52,782 nucleotides of DNA from a virus. Taxonomy: Duplodnaviria; Heunggongvirae; Uroviricota; Caudoviricetes. Where the stretch lies: the IMG/VR virus record IMGVR_UViG_2718218129_000002; one strand, 5' to 3'. The notes below the pieces were generated by a model. That model saw only the letters and a program-made list of their open reading frames with translations. It did no database searches and was not told where the DNA came from. This document shows positions 5,214 through 51,251 of this stretch, piece after piece (within the stretch, counting starts at the first letter, position 1; each line of letters begins with the position of its first letter). The translations under genes and the position numbers were made by a program.

Positions 5214-5240
5214 TGTCATAACACTGTGTTACCTGGCTAA

Positions 5241-5840
5241 TCAGAACTTATAACCGACACCCACGATGAAACCGTCAGTGCGCCAGTCGCCACTGCCGGA
5301 GCCTTCATAAGCAATATCAATGGCCACGGATTCGGTCGGGTTAAACTGCACGCCAGCTCCCCACGCCAGAGACGTGTTGCTGTGGCGACCGTCATCACTT
5401 CCGGTCAGCACGTCGTGCGTTTTCCCCTTGTTGTCAGTTACGCGGAGATAATCCCCGGAGAAAGTCGACACACGGCTGTAAGCCATACCCGCCATCGCAT
5501 ACGCGCTGAACCATTCATTCACGCGCACAGACGGCCCCACCATCACGCTGAACCAGCGGTTACGCACGGAATCTTCATGCCAGCGGGTATCGCTGTAACG
5601 GGTAAGCTGGCGATTCTTGTCTCCTGCATAGCTGAATGACGTCACCAGCCCCAGTGTGTCCGTAAACTCATAACGGTATTTCACGTTAATCCCGTTAAGA
5701 TCATCGCTGCCGGGAACGTTCGTCGAGGCATGAAGATACCCCGCGCTCAGCGTGGACTGATGTTCAGATGCCCATGCAGGCGCACCGGATACGGCCAGAC
5801 AAATGGCTGCGGACAAAATGGCGGCATAAAGTTTACGCAT
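5241..5840 (-). CDS. lomR: outer membrane protein Lom (Ail/Lom family)
   Basis: 199 aa; signal peptide; ends in ...GVGYKF beta-barrel terminus; lies between J and stf as lambda lom does. Confidence 0.85.
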
Positions 5841-5909
5841 AATTACCTCTCGCTTTTCTGCAATAAAAAAGGCACCATTTCTGGTGCCCTTATATGGGTT
5901 ATAACAATT

Positions 5910-8900
5910 TCAACGAATACTGATGCCGGAAGCGGCTTTTTTGGTCACAATCACCGTACAGTCGGTGATATTGCCTGCCCCCTGATTGCCTTTCTGGAAA
6001 ATCTTAAACTCCAGAGTGACGCTACCACCACCACTAGGCATATCAATAACTGCACTGTAACTACCGGGAATGGCCCCTTTAGTTTCTCTGGATGCGATTA
6101 ATACGCCGTTTTTGCGAACTTCAAAACCATAACCCGTGTATCGCGTGCCTCCTGGGTTATTTCCGCTCCCCGGATCGTCATACGCTATACCGTTAAAAAT
6201 AATGGGCGGAATAATAATCTGGCGGTCAAAGTTATGATCATCGCTGATGGTGACTGTAACCGTACCGTTTGGTGTTTCCGTGTTACCCCACGTACCGACT
6301 TTTTTCGGGAAGGCTTTTGATACAGCTTTAACGAAATCCCCTCTGACCTGGGTCGCCTCCAGCATGCCCTTAATCGTACAGTTCTGGTTAATCGTGACAT
6401 TGTTGAGCGTTCCTGAGTTCGCATTCACACTACCACTGATATCCGCATTTTTAGCGGTCAGCTTTCCGTCTGATGTCAGGGAAAATACCGGAGGACTGCC
6501 ACCGCTGGTAATGGTGGGGGCTGTCAGGCGCTTCAGGAACACGTCGTTCATGAATATCTGGTTGCCCTGCGCCACAAACATCGGCGTTTCATTCCCGTTT
6601 GCCGGGTCAATAAACGCGATACGGTTAGCGGCAACCAGAAACTGGCTCAGCTTGCCTTCCTCCGTGTCCTCCATGCTGAGGCCAATACCCGCGACATAAT
6701 GTTTGCCGTCTTTGGTCTGCTCAATTTTGACGCCCCACATGGCATTCCATTTATCGTTAGCGTCCTTCCACTCTTTCGAAAACTCATCCAGTCTGCTGGC
6801 GTTATCCTCCGTCAGATCAACTTTTTCCAGCAGCTCTTTACCGAGATGGGATTCGGTTATCTTGCCTTTGAAAAAATCCAGGTAACCTTCCGCATCATCG
6901 CTCGCCCGACCGACGGCCTCCACGAATGCCGATTTGCCAACGGTGTTCACACTGCGGATATAAAAGTAATAATCATGGCCCGGTTTGATATTGATACTGG
7001 CGGCTATCCAGTACAGCCCCGTGCCAAGGTAGCGGGCTGTGGTTTCAACCTGCCTGATATCGGTAATCCGCTTTTCCGAGAACCAGAACTCAAACTGTAC
7101 CGTCGGATCATAAACGGCAAGATGCGGCGTTGCGGTTATCTGAAAATAGCCCGGCGTCAGCTCAATCCGCGACGGTGCTGCCGGTGCGGCAATCCGGAAC
7201 GATACCGACGCCGGATCGCCCTGCTGCCCCCAGGCATTTGCCGCCCGGACTGTCAGCCTGTAGTTCCCCAGCGCCAGTTGCGTGAAGCGGTATGTGGTTT
7301 CCGTCGTCCGGGCCGTGCTGACCAGCCGCTCACTGCCGTCATCCGCTGCCACGGTCAGGCGAAGCATAAAGCTCACGCCCTTCACCACCTTCGGCGTGTC
7401 CCAGCGGGCCAGTACCTGATACTCCCCGCTGTCTGCGGTGACTTCGGCAGTCAGGTGCTGCACCGCTGGCGGCGTGACACCATTCACCGTGCCGCTCTGG
7501 TCGCCGTCAAAGTGCGCCCCGTTATCCACGATGGCTTCTTTTTCCGGTACATGCTGCACGGCAGTGATGGCATACGTGCCGTCATCGTTCTCACGGATAC
7601 TCACACAGCGGAACAGGCGCTGGCGCAACGTCGGCAACTTCAGCCCCCATACGCTGTATCCGGCAACGCCGTCAGGAACACGGCTCACTTTTACCTTCAC
7701 GCCGTCGGTGACGGACTGGACCTCCACGCTGACCGGATTGCCACTTCCGTCAACCAGGCTTATCAGCGTGGTACCGGAGGATGGCAGCGTGATTTCACGG
7801 TCGAGCGTCAGCGTCCGGCTCTGGCTGTTCACCGCCAGCACGCGCCCGCCGGTGCTGATACCGGCATAGTCATCATCGCAGATTTCAATGACATCGCCCG
7901 GTACATGGCGAAGCCCTTCAGCACCCACGCTGAAGTCCACGGTCTGCGTTTCCAGCAGCTCCGTTTTAATCAGCCACAGCCCGGCTCGGTGTGCCTGCCC
8001 CCGGCTGGTACAGCCAAAGGCATCCATCTTCGTGACGTTACGACCATAACGGGCAATGGCCTGCGTGTCCTCCACAAGCTCTGTCGCCGTCTCCCAGCCG
8101 TTATCCGGGTCAATCCAGTTCACCTCAACGGCATTATGGCGGTCCTTCAGGGCGCTGAAGCTGTAGCGGAACGGCGCGCCATCATCCGGCATCACCACAT
8201 TACTGCGGTTATAGGTCCACACCTTATCCGACGGTCGGTCCTGCACGAACGTCAGCGTCTGCCCGTTCCATACCGGCATACAGCGCATCGCCGAGCAGAA
8301 ATCACTGAGCACATCCCACGCCTTGCGCTGTGTGGTCAGGTACGCATTACAGGTGATGCGCGGCTCCGTGCCGCCAAAGCCGTCCGGCACTGACTGGTCG
8401 CAGTACTGGCCGATGACATACAGCGCCCATTTGTCCACATCCGCCGCACCAAGACGTTTCCCCATGCCGTAGCGTGGATGGGTCAGCATATCCCACAGAC
8501 ACCAGGCCATGTTATTGCTGTATGCTGGCTTAAACGTTCCGTCCCAGATACCGCTGTATTGCCGCGTCTGCGGGTTATAGTTCGACGGCACCTGCAGAAT
8601 ACGCCCGCGCAGATGATAATTACGGCTCACCTGCTGGCTGCCGAACTGCTCCGAATCCACCTGTACGCCGACCAGTGCCGTGTTCGGGTAGCACTGTTTC
8701 ACATCGATGATTTCGGTGTATGACGACCAGAGCGTTTTGTTCTGCAGCTGGTCTGTGGTGCTGTCCGGCGTCATCCTGCGCATCCGGATATTAAACGGGC
8801 GCGGCGGCAGGTTATCCACCACCACCGAGGCCAGATACTGCGAGGTGGTTTTGCCCTTAATGGTGATGTCTTTTTCCGTCACCCAGCCACCGTTACGTTG

Positions 8901-9323
8901 TATCTGAACCAGCAGGCGGACTTCCGACGGATTCCTGTCCCCCTTAGAGGTGGTTTCCACCAGTGCCTGCACGCCGAAAGTAAAACGCAGACGGTCAATG
9001 TTTGCCGACGTGATGGTCCGGGTGATCGGCGTGTCATATTTCACTTCTGTACCGAGCACCGTCTCGGAGCCGGAGGATTCAAATCCCTCCGGCGGTGTCT
9101 GCTCCTGCTCACCGGCCCGGAACACCACCGTGACGCCGGATATATTGGTATTCCCCTCACTGTCCAGCACCGGCGTACTGTTCAGCAGCACGCTTTTTAA
9201 TCCATCCACCGGACCTTCAACCGGCCCTTCGCTGATGGCATCGATCACACTCAGCAGCTGCGTGGACTTCAGGTTGTCCTTCGCTTCGCGCGGGGTATGC
9301 CCCTTACTGCTGCCTTTACCCAT
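5910..9323 (-). CDS. J: tail tip / host specificity protein J
   Basis: 1137 aa; N-terminus [34 protein letters not shown]... matches lambda J as recalled; C-terminal about 150 aa diverge. Confidence 0.9.
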
Positions 9324-9383
9324 TCGTCATGCTCCATAAACGATAAAACCGCCCGGAGGCGGTTTCACATAAAACGTTTTTCA

Positions 9384-10031
9384 TCAGCGACCAATCACCA
9401 CAACCTGACCACCATCCCCTTCGTCTGCCGTGCTGATCTCCTGAGAGACCACCCGCGACCCCACGCGCATTTCACCGTACAGAACGGGCAGAACATTGCC
9501 CTGGGCAACCATGTTATCCAGTGACGAGAAATACGTGTTCTGTTTGCCGTTATCTGTACTGGCTGCCGTGGGCGTCCTGGCTTTCGGTGCCAACATCTGC
9601 GCCACACCGCCCAGGATCATACTGGCCCCTGCCGCATACATACCCGATACAGCCGTGGCCCCCAGCCAGCCCACAGGGTTCCACCATGCAACCGCAATCA
9701 GCGCCGCCCCCAGCACTGCCTGAAAAATACCGCCACTTTTAGCACCCGCCGGACGCGGTACGATGTGGATCACGGCACCATTTTCCAGCGGCTCATTAAG
9801 ACGGGCAGACAATTCAGTTTCACCTGCATCACGCCCGGCAATGCGTACCTGGTACCAGCCGTCGCTCAGTTTCTGACGAAATGCCGGGATCTGCATGGCC
9901 AGCGCCCGGATGGCTTCGGACCCCGTTTTCACTCGAAGGTCGATGCGGCGGCCAAATCGTTGTAAATCCCCGTAAAGGCAGATGCGTGCCATGCCCGGTG
10001 ACGCCAGAGGGAGTGTGTGCGTCGCTGCCAT
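9384..10031 (-). CDS. I: tail assembly protein I
   Basis: 215 aa; MAATHTLPLASPGMARICLYGDLQRFGRR... matches lambda I as recalled. Confidence 0.85.
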   Translation of the reverse strand: MAATHTLPLASPGMARICLYGDLQRFGRRIDLRVKTGSEAIRALAMQIPAFRQKLSDGWYQVRIAGRDAGETELSARLNEPLENGAVIHIVPRPAGAKSGGIFQAVLGAALIAVAWWNPVGWLGATAVSGMYAAGASMILGGVAQMLAPKARTPTAASTDNGKQNTYFSSLDNMVAQGNVLPVLYGEMRVGSRVVSQEISTADEGDGGQVVVIGR

Positions 10032-10672
10032 TTGTCGGTGTACCTCTCTCGTTTGCTCAGTTGTTCAGGAATATGGTGCAGCAGCTCGCTGTCACCACAG
10101 TAAATGGCGGCATGATTCGGCACCGATGAACCAAAACAGCACAGCAGCACATCGCCCGGCTGCGCCGCTGACAACGGCACCTGATACAGCCCTGTGGCCT
10201 CCAGATTATCCAGATAGAGATTCTGACCGTTACGCCACCAGTTATCCCCGCGATGAAAATCCGGCATCTCAATTCCCGCCAGATGGTAAGCGTCCCGGAA
10301 CAGCGTGTAACAGTCCGTCACCCCGTGCTCAAAGCGCCGCCCGGTGAGATGCGGCACACAGCGGAATTTATGAATCGCCCCCCGGCAGACCAGCCACCAC
10401 GGCAAATCACTCTGTACCTGCAGCCGCCGGTCGGCCTCACTCAGCCAGGGCAGACCACCGGGGTGGCTGTGGACCAGCGCCACAATCTCTCCCTGCATTT
10501 CTGCACTCAGCCAGTCCTCCGGCGACATCCGGAAATACGCCTCCGGCTCACCGGAGATATTCACGCAGGGAAAATATCTTTCCTCCTCCGGCGTTCTCAC
10601 CACGAAGCCGCACGACTCCGCTGGCGCACATCGCCGGGCGTGCGCCAGAATCGCTGATTCTGTCTCTGTCAT
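9929..10672 (-). CDS. K: tail assembly protein K (JAMM/MPN plus NlpC/P60 domains)
   Basis: HSHPGGLPWLSEAD fits the JAMM HxHx7Sx2D motif; DCYTLF cysteine of an NlpC/P60 fold; overlaps I by about 100 nt as in lambda. Confidence 0.85.
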   Translation of the reverse strand: MTETESAILAHARRCAPAESCGFVVRTPEEERYFPCVNISGEPEAYFRMSPEDWLSAEMQGEIVALVHSHPGGLPWLSEADRRLQVQSDLPWWLVCRGAIHKFRCVPHLTGRRFEHGVTDCYTLFRDAYHLAGIEMPDFHRGDNWWRNGQNLYLDNLEATGLYQVPLSAAQPGDVLLCCFGSSVPNHAAIYCGDSELLHHIPEQLSKRERYTDKWQRRTHSLWRHRAWHASAFTGIYNDLAAASTFE

Positions 10673-10677
10673 GGGAT

Positions 10678-11376
10678 TTACTGCGAAAGTTTGTTAATGG
10701 AAAGGAAGCTGCCAAAGTTGCCGACATTATTGCGAAACTTACAGCCACTCAGGCATTTGCTGCATTTATCCTTCGTGATATCGGACGTCGGCTGGTCATA
10801 TTCATCCGCGACCGCCGGACCGCTATAACCGCACTCATCGCCGCGATAGGTCCAGGTGCAGGTGTTGGCCAGCATGATACGTCCCGGAAAAACAGCGCCA
10901 TCCGTTTCAGTCGGCGTGGACAGTACAAAAGAGGCACTGACCGCGCTCAGTTCGCTGCACTGCTCGATGCGCCAGCGGCTGATCACCTCCTGCTCCGGAT
11001 CGGCTTCGCTGTTTCCGTTGACGAAGTTCACCGCATCCAGAAAGCGGGCGTAAACCTTACGCCGGACCACCGTTCCGCCGACCAGACTCTGCAGATCTTC
11101 CGCCATCCCGGTGATCATGCCGTGCAGGTTAGAGACCGTCAGTGTCGGACGGGCAGCACTGCCCTTGCCGTTCATCTCAAATCCACTCCCCTGAATGGGA
11201 TAGGCCTGATACTGCCGACTCTGCCAGGTGACAGACTCACCTTTTTCGTTCTGCTCATTACAGAAAAAGTAGCGATCCCCGTCTACCTCGGTCAGGTCGA
11301 TTTCCCAGAGCACCACGCTGGCCGACTGCTCCGCACGAATGCATTCATTCAGCGTTTCCTGTTGTATGTCCTGCAT
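10678..11376 (-). CDS. L: minor tail protein L
   Basis: 232 aa; lambda L-like with C-terminal Cys cluster CSKCLSGC; position after M. Confidence 0.85.
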   Translation of the reverse strand: MQDIQQETLNECIRAEQSASVVLWEIDLTEVDGDRYFFCNEQNEKGESVTWQSRQYQAYPIQGSGFEMNGKGSAARPTLTVSNLHGMITGMAEDLQSLVGGTVVRRKVYARFLDAVNFVNGNSEADPEQEVISRWRIEQCSELSAVSASFVLSTPTETDGAVFPGRIMLANTCTWTYRGDECGYSGPAVADEYDQPTSDITKDKCSKCLSGCKFRNNVGNFGSFLSINKLSQ

Positions 11377-11714
11377 CAGATCACCACTTCGTCAAACTGA
11401 CACGAAAAATCGGTATAGGTGATATGTTCTGTCGCTGACCACGTTCGACACACCACTCTGATTTTTCTGTTAATACCCGGCGGGCGCCAAAAAAAAGATT
11501 TATAGCCTTCATGCCGGGCTAAAAATTTTTCAAATGAATCACGTTCATTCGCCTCAACTTTGAAATCACAGGTGAAAACGCGCAGAGAATGATTAAGTCC
11601 ATTTGGACTTCGTTGCTCATAACCATCGCCAAATCTTACAGTTTTTATCGATGGTTTATTTTCTGTTTTCATTCCATCCTCTGGTAACCAGTGAAATTCT
11701 TCCGTATTAGCCAC
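11376..11714 (-). CDS. minor tail protein M-like
   Basis: 112 aa; [12 protein letters not shown] motif similar to lambda M; sits between tape measure and L. Confidence 0.7.
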
Positions 11715-34183: not shown

Positions 34184-34611
34184 TTCTCAATCTCTCGATG
34201 GCGCAGTGCAGCAGATGCCAGTTGTTCAGGCTGACGTATAAAGTATAAATAAACTGGTTCCAGTGTAAAGCCCCCACCTTAATGGAATAAAAACCAAACA
34301 ACAGATTGCTGGGATACAAACAACGCTTATTATTAAAAGCGGTTAAACAAATTAAATTTTAATGTTATGCAAATTTGTCAGATCACCATAATATCTCATT
34401 TGAAAACCGCTGAAATAACAGCCCTATCAGGGTTAATCATATTAAGGTGAGTAAATATGGAAAACAACAAATCTGTACATTACGTTCCTTTTTTATCTGT
34501 AATACTTTTTGTTTTATGCTGTGCGTGGGCATTATTTTTATAAAAATATTTACAGATGAAGTAAACCCGCCAATCAGGTTAACTGTGGCTGCGTTGAGGA
34601 TGCATAATACA

Positions 34612-34860
34612 TCAGAGGTTGCGGGGATTTCTCCCCGCTGGTCCTCTTACTCCCCAAGTTCGTAAGCTGTGAAGACAGCGACCTCCGTCTGGTCGGTTCG
34701 GATTCGTACCTCGCAGAGGTCTTTCCTCGTTACCAGTACCGTCACTATAACGGTTAAACAGATGACGATCAGGGTGATTAACATCGCCTTTTGCTGCTTC
34801 ATAGCCTGCTTCTCCTTGACCTTTTGGTCGGTAAGAGGCTAATCTACGTATGCAAAGCAT
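34612..34860 (-). CDS. mok-like overlapping reading frame
   Basis: 82 aa frame covering hok, as mok overlaps hok in characterised hok/sok loci. Confidence 0.4.
   Translation of the reverse strand: MLCIRRLASYRPKGQGEAGYEAAKGDVNHPDRHLFNRYSDGTGNEERPLRGTNPNRPDGGRCLHSLRTWGVRGPAGRNPRNL
34621..34638 (-). terminator. hok mRNA 3' hairpin
   Basis: GCGGGGA-ttt-CTCCCCGC perfect hairpin just after the hok stop; no clear U-run. Confidence 0.4.
34647..34802 (-). CDS. hok: Hok/Gef-family type I toxin
   Basis: Hand translation MKQQKAMLITLIVICLTVIVTVLVTRKDLCEVRIRTDQTEVAVFTAYELGE; Hok-like transmembrane toxin, 51 aa. Confidence 0.8.
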   Translation of the reverse strand: MKQQKAMLITLIVICLTVIVTVLVTRKDLCEVRIRTDQTEVAVFTAYELGE

Positions 34861-34925
34861 AGATGTGGCCTCAGATTAATGTTAAGCGTCTTGCCGGACG
34901 CGTAATGTTAACTGGGGCTTTTCTC
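34850..34925 (+). ncRNA. Sok-like antisense RNA (approximate position)
   Basis: TTGACC -35 and TAATCT -10 candidates on the plus strand opposite the mok start; boundaries not determined. Confidence 0.3.
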
Positions 34926-35298
34926 TATCTGCCTTTGGTGTTCATGCCCGAGGCAGACAGCCTCAAGCACCCGCAGCTATTCTACTTAACTCCCGTTACC
35001 TCGCCAATATGAAATCAATCAGAAAGGTGATCCATAAGAGCAATAGCAAGACCATAGATTGCCATTACAGCCGCTATAGTTTCTCTGATTTATTCTGTGG
35101 AAATGGGACACAACACCCCGTCACCACCACCACTTCCTTAAATGCGCTAAGTCAGTCACAAGCCAACACTTTAGTCCGCTTTGAGCGAAAAGCTGACAGG
35201 AGTTTAAATAATCAGTTAAGGCATTACAAAAAGCATGTGCTAATAGAGATAACCAGAGTCAATATATAATCTCTTAGCTCTATTTACACTTACGTACA

Positions 35299-36003
35299 TT
35301 ATTCTTGCTTTTTGGGAGGTCTTGGATATTTCGCAGGTAATTTTTCTGTAATCTTAAATATATCCTCATTTTTTAGTATTGTTCGCATTACAAAATTTTC
35401 TATAATTACCAAAAGCGATTTAAATTCAGTTTCGTTCGGTGCCCATGTCCTGTGTGCAGCTGAGTTGCCAGCTTCGGTTACAATTTTAAGTTGGCTCCTT
35501 TCTGTTTCCCCAATAAAACCTTCCTCTTTAAGAATGTCAACCTTCTGGCCTAATGTATATCCTGGATGAATATTTAGAACCTCAACTGTTCTGTCAAAAA
35601 TAGTTCTAAGTCCAATCGCCGCTAAAATGAATGATTTATTTTGAAATGCGATGTACATTTCGTTCATTATTACATACAGCTGACGATCTTTGTTTAATAT
35701 CTCACCAAACCAAGTTGGTCTAATCTCTTCTTGCTCTTGAGTGGGATATGTTGATATATGATAGTTATATACCATACAATCATAGCCTGACTCATCTCTT
35801 TCAATGTCGTAATCTTCACTGTGACGGGATTTAATATATGTAAATATTCCGTCGCACCCCATACACTCTAATAATTTGTATTCACTTTCAGCCCAAAAAT
35901 AGTTGCCCCCATCATCCTCACTCCATTCTCTTTTTTTATGGCCTATTATGTGGCAATTTTTTTCACCTTTACAATATGGACAAGGAGCTTTAATTTTTTC
36001 CAT
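35299..36003 (-). CDS. zinc-ribbon protein with HEPN-like (DUF4145-like) C-terminal domain, candidate defence protein
   Basis: 234 aa; CPYC...CMGC zinc ribbon; C-terminal helical domain with GNSAAHRTW; AT-rich gene; the domain family is uncertain. Confidence 0.55.
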   Translation of the reverse strand: MEKIKAPCPYCKGEKNCHIIGHKKREWSEDDGGNYFWAESEYKLLECMGCDGIFTYIKSRHSEDYDIERDESGYDCMVYNYHISTYPTQEQEEIRPTWFGEILNKDRQLYVIMNEMYIAFQNKSFILAAIGLRTIFDRTVEVLNIHPGYTLGQKVDILKEEGFIGETERSQLKIVTEAGNSAAHRTWAPNETEFKSLLVIIENFVMRTILKNEDIFKITEKLPAKYPRPPKKQE

Positions 36004-36717
36004 GGTAATTATTCTGCCATTTAAATTAAAATTGATATAACATATATGCTATATGATTTATAAATGATGAACTTACGGCTCACTTTACTACAATAATTTT
36101 CATATGAGTAGTGATATGCCTCTCATTTTCTTTGTCGTTGATTGATCTGCTCTACATTGATTAACACCGAATGGGAGTAACTCCCGCTTTTGGCAGAGTG
36201 CGAACAAGCTGACCAAACCTTAGGTCCGCAGTGAGCGAGGAGCGAGCATTGGCCTTATAAGGCATCGGAGCTGTTCTCCGGAGATCCTCTGAAAGCGAAC
36301 TGTTCGGTTAAGCAGGACGCTTACAAGGCAAGCTTAGCGTGTTGTCTTGTGATGGGTTGCTTAAACCTTTTGTGAAGGTATTTTTCTATCGAAAGATAAT
36401 TAACTGAGGTTGTTATGTCATACATTCGCGTCGAGAAAGATGACCTTCAGCATTAATCAGATTATTTCTGTGAAGAGGATATGGTTACAGTCTGTAGAAC
36501 TTAGGGGATTGTAGTCCAGTGTGGTTGTTAATGAGATGGCAGAAGTAGCTGCTGTTCGTACTGCGTTGCGAAATCTCATTAGAGAAAATCGGGTTGATCC
36601 TCTAACTGATTGAATATACATTCCTATTGCTCACGAGTTGGAATGAGCTGTGACTTTTTAGCTTTAAACTTAACTTTAAGACAATTTTATGATCACGTTA
36701 GGGTGTAAGAAGGATAT

Positions 36718-37944
36718 ATGAGCGGAGAAGTATTTCATAAAAGATTGTTTCCCGTTGGCCAGGGTGGATTTAGTTTAGGCGGACTGAGGGGAAGGGATGG
36801 TAGTTTGCTTTACAGTTATGTGTATGACTGCGGAAGTGACCAATTAAATGCGTTGCGTAGGGAGATGGATGTGGCTAAATCTCTCTTTAATATTGATGAG
36901 AAATATATTGATGTGGTATACATCTCTCATTTGGATTCAGACCATATAAATGGATTTGACCATTTATGTCAGCTTGTAGATAACAAAATACGCAAGGTTG
37001 TATTACCATACCTAGATATCCATGATAGCTATTACTTAATTGCATCGGAGCTATGCTCTAATTCTACGTCAGGTCTTTTTATGGAATTTCTCATTGATCC
37101 TGTCAAATGGATAAAATCAAGGTTGCCTGAGGCAGATATATCTTTGCTTTACCCCAGTGATATTGATGATAATTTTGACCCTCCTATATTTAATAGTGAA
37201 AACATTAAGGGTAGCGCTGTAAGCTTACCAATGAAAATATCTGACTCCAAAGGAGATGTTGAATGTAACCGTTGGTTGGTTAAAAGGATTGGGGAAAACA
37301 AAACTGATACACTAATGTCATTTATTTCTTGGATACCGCCCCGTTCACGTAAGAAAATTGAAATTTTCAGTCAGCAGTTAATAGAAAATGGTTTTACTGA
37401 GTTAAGTAAGAAAAAAATGCTTAAAATATTAACTAGCACGGGGGAAAGAAAGAAATTACGCGAGTGTTATTTAAAACTTGCTGGCGATCATAATGTAATA
37501 TCAATCAATCTCTTGATTATTAATAATCAAGAAGCTGAGATGAAAATTGTTAATGAGCCTTCTCGTGAGTGGTTTAGTTTTAGAAATAGTCGGGTTGAGC
37601 GACATTTTCTCTTTGATAGAGATAAAGGAATTAGATCTGTTTTATTAACAGGTGACTCAAAGCTTAATACATCATTGTATTATAATAAATGGGCTGAATT
37701 CTATTCAAAAGTGATTAAAACGGTAAGGGTGATGACATTACCTCATCATGGTTCGGAATTAAATTTCAATCAAAAAATAATTGCGGATTTTGATAATGTT
37801 TTGTTTATAGCTCAGTCGGATGGTCATTCACATGGACACCCATCACAATCAGTAATCGATGCTATAAATTCAAGTCATGGACATAGCGTTACTTTAGTTG
37901 ACAATAATGCTAAAAATTGGGTTGATATAAAATATATATTTTAA
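36718..37944 (+). CDS. metallo-beta-lactamase-fold protein
   Basis: 408 aa; ISHLDSDHINGF resembles the MBL HxHxDH motif; C-terminal LPHHGS as in ComEC-type MBL domains; AT-rich. Confidence 0.65.
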   Translation: MSGEVFHKRLFPVGQGGFSLGGLRGRDGSLLYSYVYDCGSDQLNALRREMDVAKSLFNIDEKYIDVVYISHLDSDHINGFDHLCQLVDNKIRKVVLPYLDIHDSYYLIASELCSNSTSGLFMEFLIDPVKWIKSRLPEADISLLYPSDIDDNFDPPIFNSENIKGSAVSLPMKISDSKGDVECNRWLVKRIGENKTDTLMSFISWIPPRSRKKIEIFSQQLIENGFTELSKKKMLKILTSTGERKKLRECYLKLAGDHNVISINLLIINNQEAEMKIVNEPSREWFSFRNSRVERHFLFDRDKGIRSVLLTGDSKLNTSLYYNKWAEFYSKVIKTVRVMTLPHHGSELNFNQKIIADFDNVLFIAQSDGHSHGHPSQSVIDAINSSHGHSVTLVDNNAKNWVDIKYIF

Positions 37945-38069
37945 ACATTAGTTGTATTAATAGCATTTAAATAAATTAAGTTTGTTGGTATGTTAAAAGT
38001 TTTTGCTAGATAACCAGGTCTTTTTTGACCGATGATACAGTCTTTGTTCCACGGTGACGTGTTCACACT

Positions 38070-38100
38070 CAAATCTCCTGCAATGTGGGAGATTTGAGTA
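38070..38100. terminator. bidirectional hairpin between convergent genes
   Basis: CTCAAATCTCC-tgcaatgtg-GGAGATTTGAG, an 11-bp perfect stem. Confidence 0.4.
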
Positions 38101-38184
38101 TGGTTGTCCCTGATGTGCGATAAGCGGACCTAACATTATTATGTTTTGAATAATAAGAGACAGTCAGTTGGCTGTAAGTCTGAC

Positions 38185-39078
38185 TTAGTTATCCAAAACA
38201 GCTTTTCTTTGTATTATTGTTCTAATAAATGCTGCTGATATATGCAACACGAATTCAGCATCGTATTCCAAGACAGAAGAAACCTTGTTGCTACCATGTC
38301 TTACTGCTGGCTCTGCATTTGTATAAGCGTAAAATTTCTCTATCACCGTTAAAAGCATAGGTGAGATAGTGTTTTCTTTTCTCATCAGTTTTAATACATC
38401 GCCCAAGGTTGAGGCTGAAGGATAATAAGTCCGACACATGCTTTCTATTGCACTTATTGATTCTTTTATGGAATTTTCTGGATCCTTATGCGCACCTAAT
38501 GCAAAAGCCCGGGCTTTCACATAGTGCCTCCTTGCAGGTTCAAACTGGTCTTGCAATAAGTTGTTAGTTTCATCGATTTTTTGTTCTAATTCATTTGGTA
38601 GTGGTGTTTCTAACCTACCAGCAGAATTCATTTTCCAGTCAATATTTCGAGATGCGAATAACTCGTTCAATTTCTGACGATATGATGTAAAAGTAATGTC
38701 TTCTAATGCCTTCTTACCCCAAGTATGGCCTCTTTCTACATCTCTTTTTCTTAATAGATCTCCGATAATCTCAACAGCATCATAAAATTGAAACCAACGC
38801 ATATGTTGCAAACGCGCTTTCAAAGCATCATAGCAGTACCATGAATCGAAATCCTCATGATCTGTTTCTTGACCATTCTCTGCGCAAAGTCGCTCGATCA
38901 AAGCCTTAATACCCAACGGCTTGTTCTCATCATTCGTAATGCGGCTATCACCATCAATGTACAAAAAATTATCGAGGACAGTTACAAAAAATAAAGAGCG
39001 AAGCCACTCTGGAGCATCTTCCCGTATCGGCTTTTTATTATACTCAGGATCAAAACCATGTCTGTACGAGAACTTCAT
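38185..39078 (-). CDS. hypothetical protein, candidate defence-associated
   Basis: 297 aa from MKFSYRHGFDPEYNKK... with GGGAG Shine-Dalgarno; AT-rich; no motif recognised with confidence. Confidence 0.55.
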   Translation of the reverse strand: MKFSYRHGFDPEYNKKPIREDAPEWLRSLFFVTVLDNFLYIDGDSRITNDENKPLGIKALIERLCAENGQETDHEDFDSWYCYDALKARLQHMRWFQFYDAVEIIGDLLRKRDVERGHTWGKKALEDITFTSYRQKLNELFASRNIDWKMNSAGRLETPLPNELEQKIDETNNLLQDQFEPARRHYVKARAFALGAHKDPENSIKESISAIESMCRTYYPSASTLGDVLKLMRKENTISPMLLTVIEKFYAYTNAEPAVRHGSNKVSSVLEYDAEFVLHISAAFIRTIIQRKAVLDN

Positions 39079-39488
39079 CCCACATCTCCCATTCAACTGT
39101 ATGAATATTAGGTAATTATACAACCAACACAAATCCCTTTGCGAATACAAAAAAATCAAAAAATCACAACAAATTTAAGAACTGATCGCTTATTTCTCTA
39201 TGGATGTCCGCTTCTGGCACGAAGCGGACAAGTTACCGTAGCTGAAGGTCACTAATACTGGGGGCAGGTCAGTTCGCGTTTGTTCTCATAACGGAGTAAG
39301 ACGCTAATGGTATTAAGGTGTATTAATGATCAATGTAGATCAACGATTATTGGCGTTTAACGCTCAGATGAGAACGTTCACCGATTCTGCACGAACAAAT
39401 TCAGAATGGGGGGATTTGATATCCCCCTGGTAGATGCCTTGGTTAATGTTTATAGGTCAATTGAACTCAGAGCATCATTCTTGCCGCA

Positions 39489-40850
39489 TTAGAGATGGTC
39501 AAAAATAGACCCTTTGCGTGGAATAAGGATCTTCTCATAAAGCTTTGTTGCATAGTCATCAGTCATCCCTGAAACATAGTCGCAAATGACTCGCATACCA
39601 GCCTTCTCGTCCAAGCTAGTCTGCCGCTCGTAAATTTCCCTCGTTGATGCCGGTAGAAACCGACACGGATCGTTAGCCAGCACACCGAAAAGCTCAACAA
39701 TCAACTTTTGTCCCTTGAATTCAAGCTGCTGTACATTTTCATGCTTAATTACTTTATTTTTGACCAGTTTGAAAATTTTCAACCGTAGTGCTTCGACCGC
39801 TTCCGGAAGGACCGCATTATATTTGAGCATGCCACATTCGAATGCTGGATTCTTTGTAATAAGCTCAACGCTTGTAATCATCAGGTGAACCAGCATCCCG
39901 ATGCACTCTTTTCTCTTGTAACTTTCACCAAAAAGGCTATCCGCGACAGATTCACATGTTGCGGAAAATGTTTCTCCATGGCAGTTAGTAAATAGGGTTT
40001 CATATTCACTGAAATGCTCCATCCACATTTCTCGTGTCACCATTCCGAGAGAAATAGCATCCTCCAAATCGTGCAGCGAATACGAAATTTCATCGGCAAG
40101 ATCCATGATGGTTGTATCGAGAGCTTTATAAGAAGCTTTTTTATGATCGGATTTAGTTTGACCATCTTCAACGGAAGTAAAAAGCCTCCGATCCTGTTCA
40201 GTAAATGGTGAAAGAGCAAATTCTACAACATCGCATTCTGAATCTAGATAGCATTTTGGAGGTTTAAAATCAGATGACTTAAAGAGCCAGTTCGGCGATC
40301 CGATAGTGGCCGGGATTCTGTCTTTTGTAACCACTAGATCCGAGTATTTAACCGGATATTTCAGTATGCCTAGCAGAAGTCTGCGTGTAGGATCGAGTCC
40401 GTGTTCAACGGTATACTTATCTAGTTTCGAGAGAATGCGAAGTGTCTGACCGTTTCCTTCAAAACCACCGTAATCCTGCATACAGTAGTTAAGAGCTACC
40501 TCACCGCCGTGACCAAATGGAGGATGTCCAATATCATGTGCGAGACATACTGCCTGCATAAGATCGTTATCTGGTAAAAATTGCTCTTGCTCTTTACCTT
40601 TATATTTTATTTTCAGCTTAGCAAGAAGACCTGAACCGATTTGTGCGACTTCCATAGAATGAGTCAGTCGTGTGCGGTAGAAATCACTTTCACCCAGACC
40701 AAGAACCTGTGTTTTGGATTGCAATCGTCTGAAAGCAGACGAGTGAATCAGTCGAGAAAGGTCGTGCTGAGCTTCAGATCGAATCTCCTCCACACGATGA
40801 CTATTGGTGCCTCGTCTCTTATCCCAGACGTTTATTTCACTCCGAGTCAT
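39489..40850 (-). CDS. dGTP triphosphohydrolase (HD domain, Dgt family), likely anti-phage dGTPase
   Basis: RTRLTHSMEVAQIG and HDIGHPPFGHGGE HD-domain motifs; start set at MTRSEINVW by GAGGAA Shine-Dalgarno; about 453 aa. Confidence 0.8.
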   Translation of the reverse strand: MTRSEINVWDKRRGTNSHRVEEIRSEAQHDLSRLIHSSAFRRLQSKTQVLGLGESDFYRTRLTHSMEVAQIGSGLLAKLKIKYKGKEQEQFLPDNDLMQAVCLAHDIGHPPFGHGGEVALNYCMQDYGGFEGNGQTLRILSKLDKYTVEHGLDPTRRLLLGILKYPVKYSDLVVTKDRIPATIGSPNWLFKSSDFKPPKCYLDSECDVVEFALSPFTEQDRRLFTSVEDGQTKSDHKKASYKALDTTIMDLADEISYSLHDLEDAISLGMVTREMWMEHFSEYETLFTNCHGETFSATCESVADSLFGESYKRKECIGMLVHLMITSVELITKNPAFECGMLKYNAVLPEAVEALRLKIFKLVKNKVIKHENVQQLEFKGQKLIVELFGVLANDPCRFLPASTREIYERQTSLDEKAGMRVICDYVSGMTDDYATKLYEKILIPRKGSIFDHL

Positions 40851-50854: not shown

Positions 50855-51049
50855 ATGAGATATGACAATGTTAAACCATGTCCATTTTGTGGTTGTCCAT
50901 CAGTAACGGTGAAAGCCATTTCAGGATATTACCGAGCGAAGTGTAACGGATGCGAATCCCGAACCGGTTATGGTGGAAGTGAAAAAGAAGCACTCGAAAG
51001 ATGGAATAAACGAACCACTGGAAATAATAATGGAGGTGTTCATGTGTAA
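50855..51049 (+). CDS. ralR: restriction alleviation protein RalR/Lar
   Basis: 64 aa from MRYDNVKPCPFCGCPSVTVKAISGYYRAKCNGCESRTG...; zinc-ribbon-like Cys pairs. Confidence 0.75.
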   Translation: MRYDNVKPCPFCGCPSVTVKAISGYYRAKCNGCESRTGYGGSEKEALERWNKRTTGNNNGGVHV

Positions 51050-51251
51050 AATTACCGCCACTATTGAAAAGGAAGGTGGCACTCCTACTAACTGGACAAG
51101 ATATTCAAAATCTAAACTAACGAAATCAGAATGCGAAAAAATGCTCTCAGGTAAAAAAGAAGCAGGCGTTTCCAGAGAGCAGAAAGTAAAACTGATAAAT
51201 TTTAATTGCGAGAAACTTCAGTCCTCGAGAATTGCATTGTATTCAAATTAA
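51042..51251 (+). CDS. ydaC: YdaC-like small protein
   Basis: 69 aa from MCKITATIEKEGG...; GGAGGTG Shine-Dalgarno. Confidence 0.55.
   Translation: MCKITATIEKEGGTPTNWTRYSKSKLTKSECEKMLSGKKEAGVSREQKVKLINFNCEKLQSSRIALYSN

Follow-up and report, generated by a model that had tools for sequence, protein, structure and literature searches.

The hok/mok/sok locus of plasmid R1 (parB) is a plasmid-borne cassette whose role there is post-segregational killing. The R1 hok mRNA is described by a model in which the full-length RNA refolds once it has been truncated (PMC9841398). A related cassette, hokW–mokW–sokW, is annotated in the genome record of phage 933W (AF125520), and hokW–sokW has been shown experimentally to be a type I toxin–antitoxin pair in which HokW is toxic and sokW neutralises it (PMC8621323). 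After mitomycin C, sokW vanishes and HokW is produced in a RecA-dependent manner; when hokW–sokW is deleted, the onset of growth arrest comes ~40 min later and phage release is halved, and growth without induction is unchanged (PMC8621323). Two further relatives are the cassette of 'Escherichia phage Rac' of E. coli 442/2 (MN652886), in which mok and hok are annotated, and hokD (relF) of the Qin prophage of E. coli K-12, which encodes the closest named Hok protein. A literature search on the phage Rac 442/2 record returned irrelevant papers only.

The window analysed here is a stretch of viral DNA of 52,782 nucleotides (Caudoviricetes; IMG/VR record IMGVR_UViG_2718218129_000002). Positions 34560–35007 very probably form a complete and apparently intact hok/mok/sok type I toxin–antitoxin cassette of the hokD/hokW subgroup, operating by the canonical mechanism. 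This kind of element is already known and ordinary, and its toxin is already annotated in RefSeq as a 'Hok/Gef family protein' (WP_021554378.1). An earlier sequence-only reading had called the locus a hok/mok/sok type I toxin–antitoxin system spanning 34600–34990. Every sequence-level test (Pfam, Rfam, folds and covariation) backs the call and the locus itself stands, but the limits were too narrow, since fbi, the terminator-like hairpin at 34560–34584 and the −35 element of the hok promoter all lie outside them. In the cassette comparison the edges of homology are sharp, at ~34563 and ~34992. The features of the cassette, in the order of the mRNA and followed by those of the antisense gene, are:

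34979..35007, minus strand: hok/mok promoter; −35 TTGGCG (35007..35002), 17-nt spacer, −10 TAGAAT (34984..34979)
34560..34972, minus strand: predicted full-length hok/mok mRNA, ~390–413 nt, both ends predicted
34962..34972, minus strand: tac (translational activator element), mRNA nt 1–11, nearly invariant in 68 leaders
34913..34920, minus strand: ucb (upstream complementary box, AAGCCCCA)
34867..34873, minus strand: mok Shine-Dalgarno (SD) region, UGAGGCC
34612..34860, minus strand: mok, ATG start, 82 aa, +1 frame relative to hok, overlapping all of hok
34835..34839, minus strand: dcb (downstream complementary box, GCCUC)
34809–34817, minus strand: hok SD, AAGGAGAAG
34647..34802, minus strand: hok, 51 aa, MKQQKAMLITLIVICLTVIVTVLVTRKDLCEVRIRTDQTEVAVFTAYELGE (RefSeq WP_021554378.1)
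34621..34638, minus strand: 3' stem-loop GCGGGGA-GAAA-UCCCCGC, perfect 7-bp stem starting 9 nt past the hok stop
34587..34599, minus strand: fbi (fold-back inhibitory element, CCUCAACGCAGCC)
34560..34584, minus strand: weak terminator-like hairpin downstream of fbi, a predicted fold
34816..34845, plus strand: Sok promoter; −35 TTGACC (34816–34821), 18-nt spacer, −10 TAATCT (34840–34845)
34852..34922, plus strand: predicted Sok RNA, ~71 nt, placed by gap-free coordinate transfer from the annotated sokW of 933W

Hok covers all 42 positions of the Pfam profile HOK_GEF (PF01848), its score of 74.4 bits (E=5.3e-21) exceeding the cut-off of 22, while the leader at 34797–34972 matches the full Rfam model RF01794 ('sok', positions 1–157) with a score of 105.2 bits (E=6e-23), the gathering score being 59; the two scores reject a chance open reading frame outright. 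The Rfam model has the orientation of the hok-sense strand and describes the hok leader, so the match supports the locus and was rejected as proof of an antisense transcript. The sequence of the 51-aa minus-strand protein is exactly as given in the earlier reading, which had assigned it to the Hok family. It keeps the invariant residues common to HokW, the Hok of Rac 442/2 and R1-type Hok, and is identical to K-12 HokD at 46 of 51 residues and to HokW at 43 of 51. The five substitutions relative to HokD are all found in other family members too, and PGAP calls near-identical alleles 'hokD'. Several independent prophages, a Qin-like one among them, encode the identical protein, and the hok ORF is free of frameshifts, IS insertions and premature stops.

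The 82-aa mok-like frame proposed to overlap hok entirely is present in the list of ORFs (34612–34860, minus strand). Its ATG at 34860 lies 58 nt ahead of the hok ATG, in an alignment column that reads ATG in 52 of 58 distinct family loci. Among the distinct loci, mok shares the frame of hok in 33 and lies in the +1 frame in 16, the window included. The mok frames of relatives are mostly 68–72 aa long (68 in the closest +1-frame relatives); in the window the usual TGA stop reads TGG, which adds 14 codons, carries the frame across the 3' hairpin and makes its length atypical.

The hok/mok promoter has nine of 12 consensus matches in a consensus scan. Its −10 element is conserved in Rac 442/2 and 933W, and homology between the cassettes stops at the −35 region. 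The predicted 5' end of the mRNA, 34972, is where both the Rfam model and the conserved GGGUGCUUGAGG have their first position. Folded in full, the 413-nt RNA from 34972 to 34560 has a minimum free energy (MFE) of −155.8 kcal/mol (z=−6.3 against shuffles). Beyond hok, the perfect 3' hairpin that had been noted earlier can be read directly from the sequence (GCGGGGA-GAAA-TCCCCGC, 34621–34638); its helix is retained in 79–88% of cells across 58 loci, with compensatory changes present. The equivalent hairpin of R1 is taken to protect the processed mRNA. Relatives carry a canonical CCCGCTTCGGCGGGTTTTT terminator further downstream, which in the Rac-lineage allele is degraded in its 5' arm and T-run to AACCTGATTGGCGGGTTTAC. 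A terminator scan of 34400–35200 reported none. The Rac-lineage 3' UTR allele is also found in the Rac-type prophages of HKUOPY1 and 64.1, and so in three independent prophages; the canonical 3' UTR is present in a Qin-like prophage whose Hok protein is identical.

In the MFE structure of the full-length RNA, tac pairs with fbi, and the mok SD (34867–34873) pairs with ucb. RNAs shortened so as to end at 34612 or 34605 fold instead with tac/ucb and mok-SD/dcb, and the loop of the mok-SD/dcb hairpin faces the Sok tail; on trimming to 34618 tac/ucb forms and the mok-SD/dcb hairpin does not. The switch is an in silico prediction from MFE folds at chosen trim points. The predicted folds match the refolding of R1 hok from its full-length to its truncated form (PMC9841398), and the fold-back elements expected of such a locus were recovered by RNA structure prediction, both as the closed tac/fbi form and as the refolding on trimming. 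As candidates for ucb and dcb, AGCCUCUUACC and a site at the hok stop codon were rejected, since ucb and dcb lie on either side of the mok SD within the leader (PMC9841398).

The duplex between tac and fbi is predicted at −17.4 kcal/mol with a mean pair probability of 0.99 in the window. For the window alone this energy compares with −13.3 kcal/mol for shuffled UTRs, and 48 of 1000 shuffles were equally good; across the family the mean is −20.9 kcal/mol with the locus's own UTR against −14.5 kcal/mol with shuffled UTRs. One tac/fbi pair, 4:120, covaries, with 26 loci carrying C-G and 25 carrying U-A. The fbi of the window reads GCAGCC where relatives read GCACCC. This produces a G·G mismatch at 34589 at a cost of ~4 kcal/mol; of 57 loci, the window is the only one left unpaired there.

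Conservation of these structures was followed through a family scan of one genome per species, which gave 79 loci; the genera represented include Escherichia, Shigella, Kluyvera, Photorhabdus and Enterobacter. The leader is kept in 75 of 83 sequences (the 79 loci, the window and three reference copies). When the structure predicted for the window is laid over 68 leaders, 80.1% of cells are paired, compared with 39–51% when slid, a comparison which somewhat favours that structure as it was taken from one aligned sequence, the window; 19 pairs show two-sided or compensatory changes. In the 68 leaders 96% of the cells of the tac/ucb helix are paired, and for the mok-SD/dcb helix the figure is 88% across the family. 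For tac/fbi together with the 3' hairpin the paired share of cells is 84%, compared with 37–59% when slid.

On the opposite strand, a plus-strand promoter-like element had been proposed where a Sok RNA would start, and such an element, TTGACC-18-TAATCT, is placed as are the annotated sokW promoter and start of 933W. Of 58 loci, 57 have TTGACC or TTGCC as the −35. The −10, TAATCT, is the commonest in the family (26 of 58 loci), and TAACCT, TATCCT or TACTCT occupies its place in a further 16. A strict sigma-70 consensus scan left the Sok promoter unreported because its −10 matches only three of six consensus positions; the assignment therefore draws on positional homology with sokW and on conservation of the hexamers. 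Mutation of the sokW −10 abolished antitoxin activity, and the reported length of sokW, 71 nt, is that predicted for Sok here (PMC8621323). In the predicted Sok RNA a single-stranded 5' tail of 15 nt lies over the mok start codon and is followed by a long hairpin and, at the end, by GGGGCUUUU (U-tail); the fold is at −29.7 kcal/mol (z=−4.1). At the level of the sequence, a Sok gene with a promoter inside the leader, a 5' tail and a terminator hairpin is predicted.

By analogy with R1 and with the work on hokW, a stable mRNA would be transcribed from the minus-strand promoter. In this RNA tac would pair with the 3' fbi and ucb would mask the mok ribosome-binding site, so that, as proposed, the full-length form would be neither translated nor bound by Sok. 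Slow trimming from the 3' end would then strip fbi, allowing the tac/ucb and mok-SD/dcb helices to form and exposing the mok start region. A short-lived, ~71-nt Sok from the plus strand is expected to pair through its 5' tail with the exposed region, blocking translation of mok and hence that of hok, which is coupled to it; degradation of the duplex would follow. Once Sok synthesis stops, Hok would be translated, insert into the inner membrane and collapse it. Possible triggers include prophage induction, shut-off of transcription by an infecting phage and loss of the element.

Over 38 kb the window shows 99.98% identity to a WGI31CT prophage, which sits next to ttcA and carries intR, xisR, rcbA, ralR, recET, racC, kilR, sieB and trkG, indicating a full-length Rac-type prophage. 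Within it hok lies between a block of variable cargo and the DUF1367-DUF1364-DUF1133(Q) module. The cargo beside hok comprises a dGTPase, a PDC-S32 candidate, an MBL-fold protein and a DUF4145 protein; PADLOC recognises the dGTPase as a defence gene (E=5.7e-144) and the PDC-S32 candidate (E=1.6e-33), and its search left Hok and the DUF4145 neighbour unmatched, PADLOC holding no Hok model. No rem gene, as found in phage Rac 442/2 and Qin, was detected by tblastn between hok and DUF1367.

It had also been suggested that the cassette is cargo specific to this variant of Rac, given that Rac of K-12 has no hok. The premise is true, in that the truncated ydaW of K-12 runs straight into the rzpR pseudogene, and the reason is that the whole segment from ydaW to Rz has been deleted; K-12 Rac is consequently a poor reference for the content of Rac prophages. 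The suggestion itself is unsupported, since hok occupies the same site in other Rac-type prophages, in MN652886 and in Qin-like prophages, and is widely distributed. The Rac-type prophages of HKUOPY1 and 64.1 have the same cassette at the same site with different cargo upstream, and the arrangement hok-spacer-DUF1367 is common to 343 complete genomes. A hok homologue is present in 4727 of 5426 complete E. coli genomes (median two per genome, in up to 10 places) and in 110 phage records. Among the lambda-like prophages of E. coli, the hok/mok/sok cassette is a standard accessory module. For annotation, the locus is properly described as a complete hok/mok/sok module with a Sok RNA, of which PGAP gives the Hok CDS only; beyond correct annotation its significance is small.

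For the prophage, the pay-off of a functional cassette would most likely be earlier lysis and greater phage release on induction, as found for hokW–sokW in a single study, and prophage addiction and abortive infection are possible additional effects; the earlier reading had suggested stabilisation of the prophage or a contribution to phage defence. Alternatively, the locus may be a decaying, non-functional relic in which the ORF has been kept but regulated killing lost, like several chromosomal hok loci of K-12. Pedersen and Gerdes are said to have found in 1999 that most of those loci are inactive, a precedent by which an intact sequence is no guarantee of function. Four traits of the allele would suit such a relic, namely the unique fbi mismatch among 57 loci, the weakened terminator with its interrupted T-run, the lost mok stop codon (82 aa as opposed to mostly 68–72) and a Sok −10 which agrees with consensus at only three of six positions; truncated copies do persist, such as K-12 hokD, where relE sequence replaces the leader upstream of 34816. 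Each element is, however, present and in register. The tac/fbi pairing is still predicted at a probability of 0.99, the Sok −10 is the commonest in the family, the 3' UTR allele persists in three independent Rac-type prophages whose cargo differs, and hok has suffered no frameshift, IS insertion or premature stop. The peculiarities of the allele are read as tolerated lineage variants instead of decay; they remain the chief doubt on function, and a relic appears highly improbable.

If the cassette functions, its main selected role might instead be phage defence by abortive infection, with firing at the point when an infecting phage shuts off transcription, alongside the neighbouring defence genes. 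The cassette does adjoin the dGTPase defence gene and the PDC-S32 candidate, and in the Qin-like prophage it comes after an ATPase/AAA/HNH cluster, but other Rac-type prophages have transporters and regulators in this slot in place of defence genes, which makes the link to defence inconstant, and Hok has no match in PADLOC (where no model for it exists). R1 hok/sok on a high-copy plasmid cut the plating of T4 by 42% (cited in PMC8621323), an effect which is modest and required high copy number, whereas the sole prophage homologue tested, hokW–sokW, aided phage release instead of blocking phage (PMC8621323). Defence as the main role is unlikely. In addiction, cells losing the prophage or its cargo through excision or deletion would be killed because Sok disappears before the stable hok mRNA does. 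This is what R1 hok/sok classically does for plasmids (summarised in PMC9841398), and in four prophages the cassette is a conserved neighbour of the variable cargo slot. However, most E. coli genomes hold several hok/sok copies (median two, up to 10 places), K-12 survived the loss of the entire segment from its Rac, and deletion of hokW–sokW left uninduced growth unaffected (PMC8621323), so that addiction too is an improbable main role. In the four prophages the slot upstream of hok contains defence genes, transporters or ATPase/HNH systems. One speculative extension, to which very little weight is given, is that the cassette is a fixed anchor at the downstream edge of a recombination hotspot in which lambda-like prophages swap cargo, where the Rac-lineage 3' UTR might retune the timing of Hok and the cassette could guard the cargo from deletion or couple killing to the defence that the cargo provides. 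As a constant edge of a variable cargo and defence slot in lambda-like prophages, the cassette could aid the automatic finding of such slots.

A functional hok/mok/sok cassette that assists the prophage on induction remains the preferred reading. The cassette of phage Rac 442/2 is 92.8% identical to the window over 34563–34989 and belongs to the same prophage family, where it lies at an equivalent site, downstream of ydaV-ydaW-DUF977 and upstream of DUF1367-DUF1364-Q. Its mok is likewise in the +1 frame, but is 68 aa long; it has rem between hok and DUF1367, which the window does not, together with a canonical terminator and a perfect fbi, and its Hok differs from that of the window at six amino acids. 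In the cassette of Stx2 phage 933W and Sakai prophage Sp5 (AF125520; Takada et al. 2021, PMC8621323), DNA identity is 89.5% over 34587–34992 of the window, and the two share the leader, the position of the Sok promoter, a 71-nt Sok, the 3' hairpin, fbi and carriage by a lambda-like prophage. They differ in their flanking genes, in the fully complementary fbi of 933W and in mok, which in 933W is an in-frame N-terminal extension of hok starting 57 nt upstream and 70 aa long, in contrast to the +1 frame of the window. The 5' tail of Sok and its target differ from those of 933W at many positions, which makes cross-regulation unlikely.

K-12 hokD occupies a similar site, with rem and the Q antiterminator of its lambda-like prophage downstream. 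It is truncated, with homology ending at 34816 of the window, and the end of relE takes the place of tac, ucb, the mok start, and the Sok −10 and transcribed region, whereas the copy in the window is complete. R1 hok/mok/sok has the same order of elements (tac, ucb, mok SD, mok, dcb, hok, 3' hairpin and fbi), with Sok on the opposite strand and mok out of frame with hok. Its Hok is only 43% identical to that of the window, and its tac/fbi pairing is GGCGC/GCGCC instead of GGGUGC/GCACCC. Relative to R1, the subgroup to which the window belongs has an insertion of ~19 nt in the hairpin of the Sok gene; the Sok of R1 is ~64 nt long, compared with the ~71 nt predicted here.

The hok cassette of the window encodes a Hok protein (WP_021554378.1) that occurs, identical in sequence, with two distinct 3' UTRs: that of the Rac lineage, at window positions 34560–34646, and that of a Qin-like prophage, L088, at its positions 9365–9481. 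In the Rac-lineage 3' UTR, the fbi element, which is predicted to pair with the tac element at the mRNA 5' end, contains a mismatch and the terminator is degraded, whereas in the Qin-type 3' UTR both fbi and terminator are canonical. Since one protein is joined to two different 3' UTRs, the hok cassette is itself mosaic.

The leader is conserved apart from its most variable part, the stretch from the mok Shine-Dalgarno sequence (SD) to the dcb, the box that pairs with it (window 34845–34866; alignment A3, columns ~126–150). This stretch is also the predicted target of the Sok 5' tail; its variability would be consistent with the 1–10 hok copies per genome avoiding cross-talk with one another. 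The Rfam family RF01794, 'sok antitoxin' by name, matches the hok-coding strand at window 34797–34972, and effectively models the leader of the hok mRNA, folded as in the truncated form, rather than the Sok RNA strand. Three further RNA elements in the window scored above the Rfam gathering score:

51048–51226 (-), RalA antitoxin sRNA (RalR/RalA pair), 225 bits
31821–32007 (-), STnc100, 86.6 bits
1273–1471 (-), IS009, 220.9 bits

The RalA match therefore places a second type I toxin-antitoxin system on the prophage.

A variable cargo slot follows the replication genes and precedes the Q module (DUF1367-DUF1364-Q); its constant downstream edge is the hok cassette. The contents of this slot were compared among prophages with a hok identical or near-identical to the window copy:

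window 35299–40850, dGTPase (PADLOC E=5.7e-144), PDC-S32 candidate (E=1.6e-33), MBL-fold protein and DUF4145 protein
L007 (Rac-type prophage, strain HKUOPY1) 5237–11487, slot
L087 (Rac-type prophage, strain 64.1) 7281–8764, slot
L088 5019–8894, slot

In the prophages other than that of the window, the cargo consists of transporters with a LysR regulator, of two hypothetical proteins, or of a cluster of ATPase/AAA/HNH genes. On the other side of the cassette, an AT-rich spacer of ~380 nt (window 34184–34560) separates it from the DUF1367 gene; no convincing ORF was found in this spacer, nor any rem homologue by tblastn. Phage Rac 442/2 and Qin, in contrast, carry a rem gene at this position.

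The mok frame also varies across the family. In 33 of 58 distinct loci, that of the Stx2 phage 933W among them, mok is in frame with hok and extends Hok at the N terminus; in 16 others, among them plasmid R1 and the window (mok at 34612–34860), it occupies the +1 frame. Closely related copies switch frame through an indel of one base between the start codons of mok and hok; relative to 933W, the window and Rac 442/2 are one base longer in this interval.
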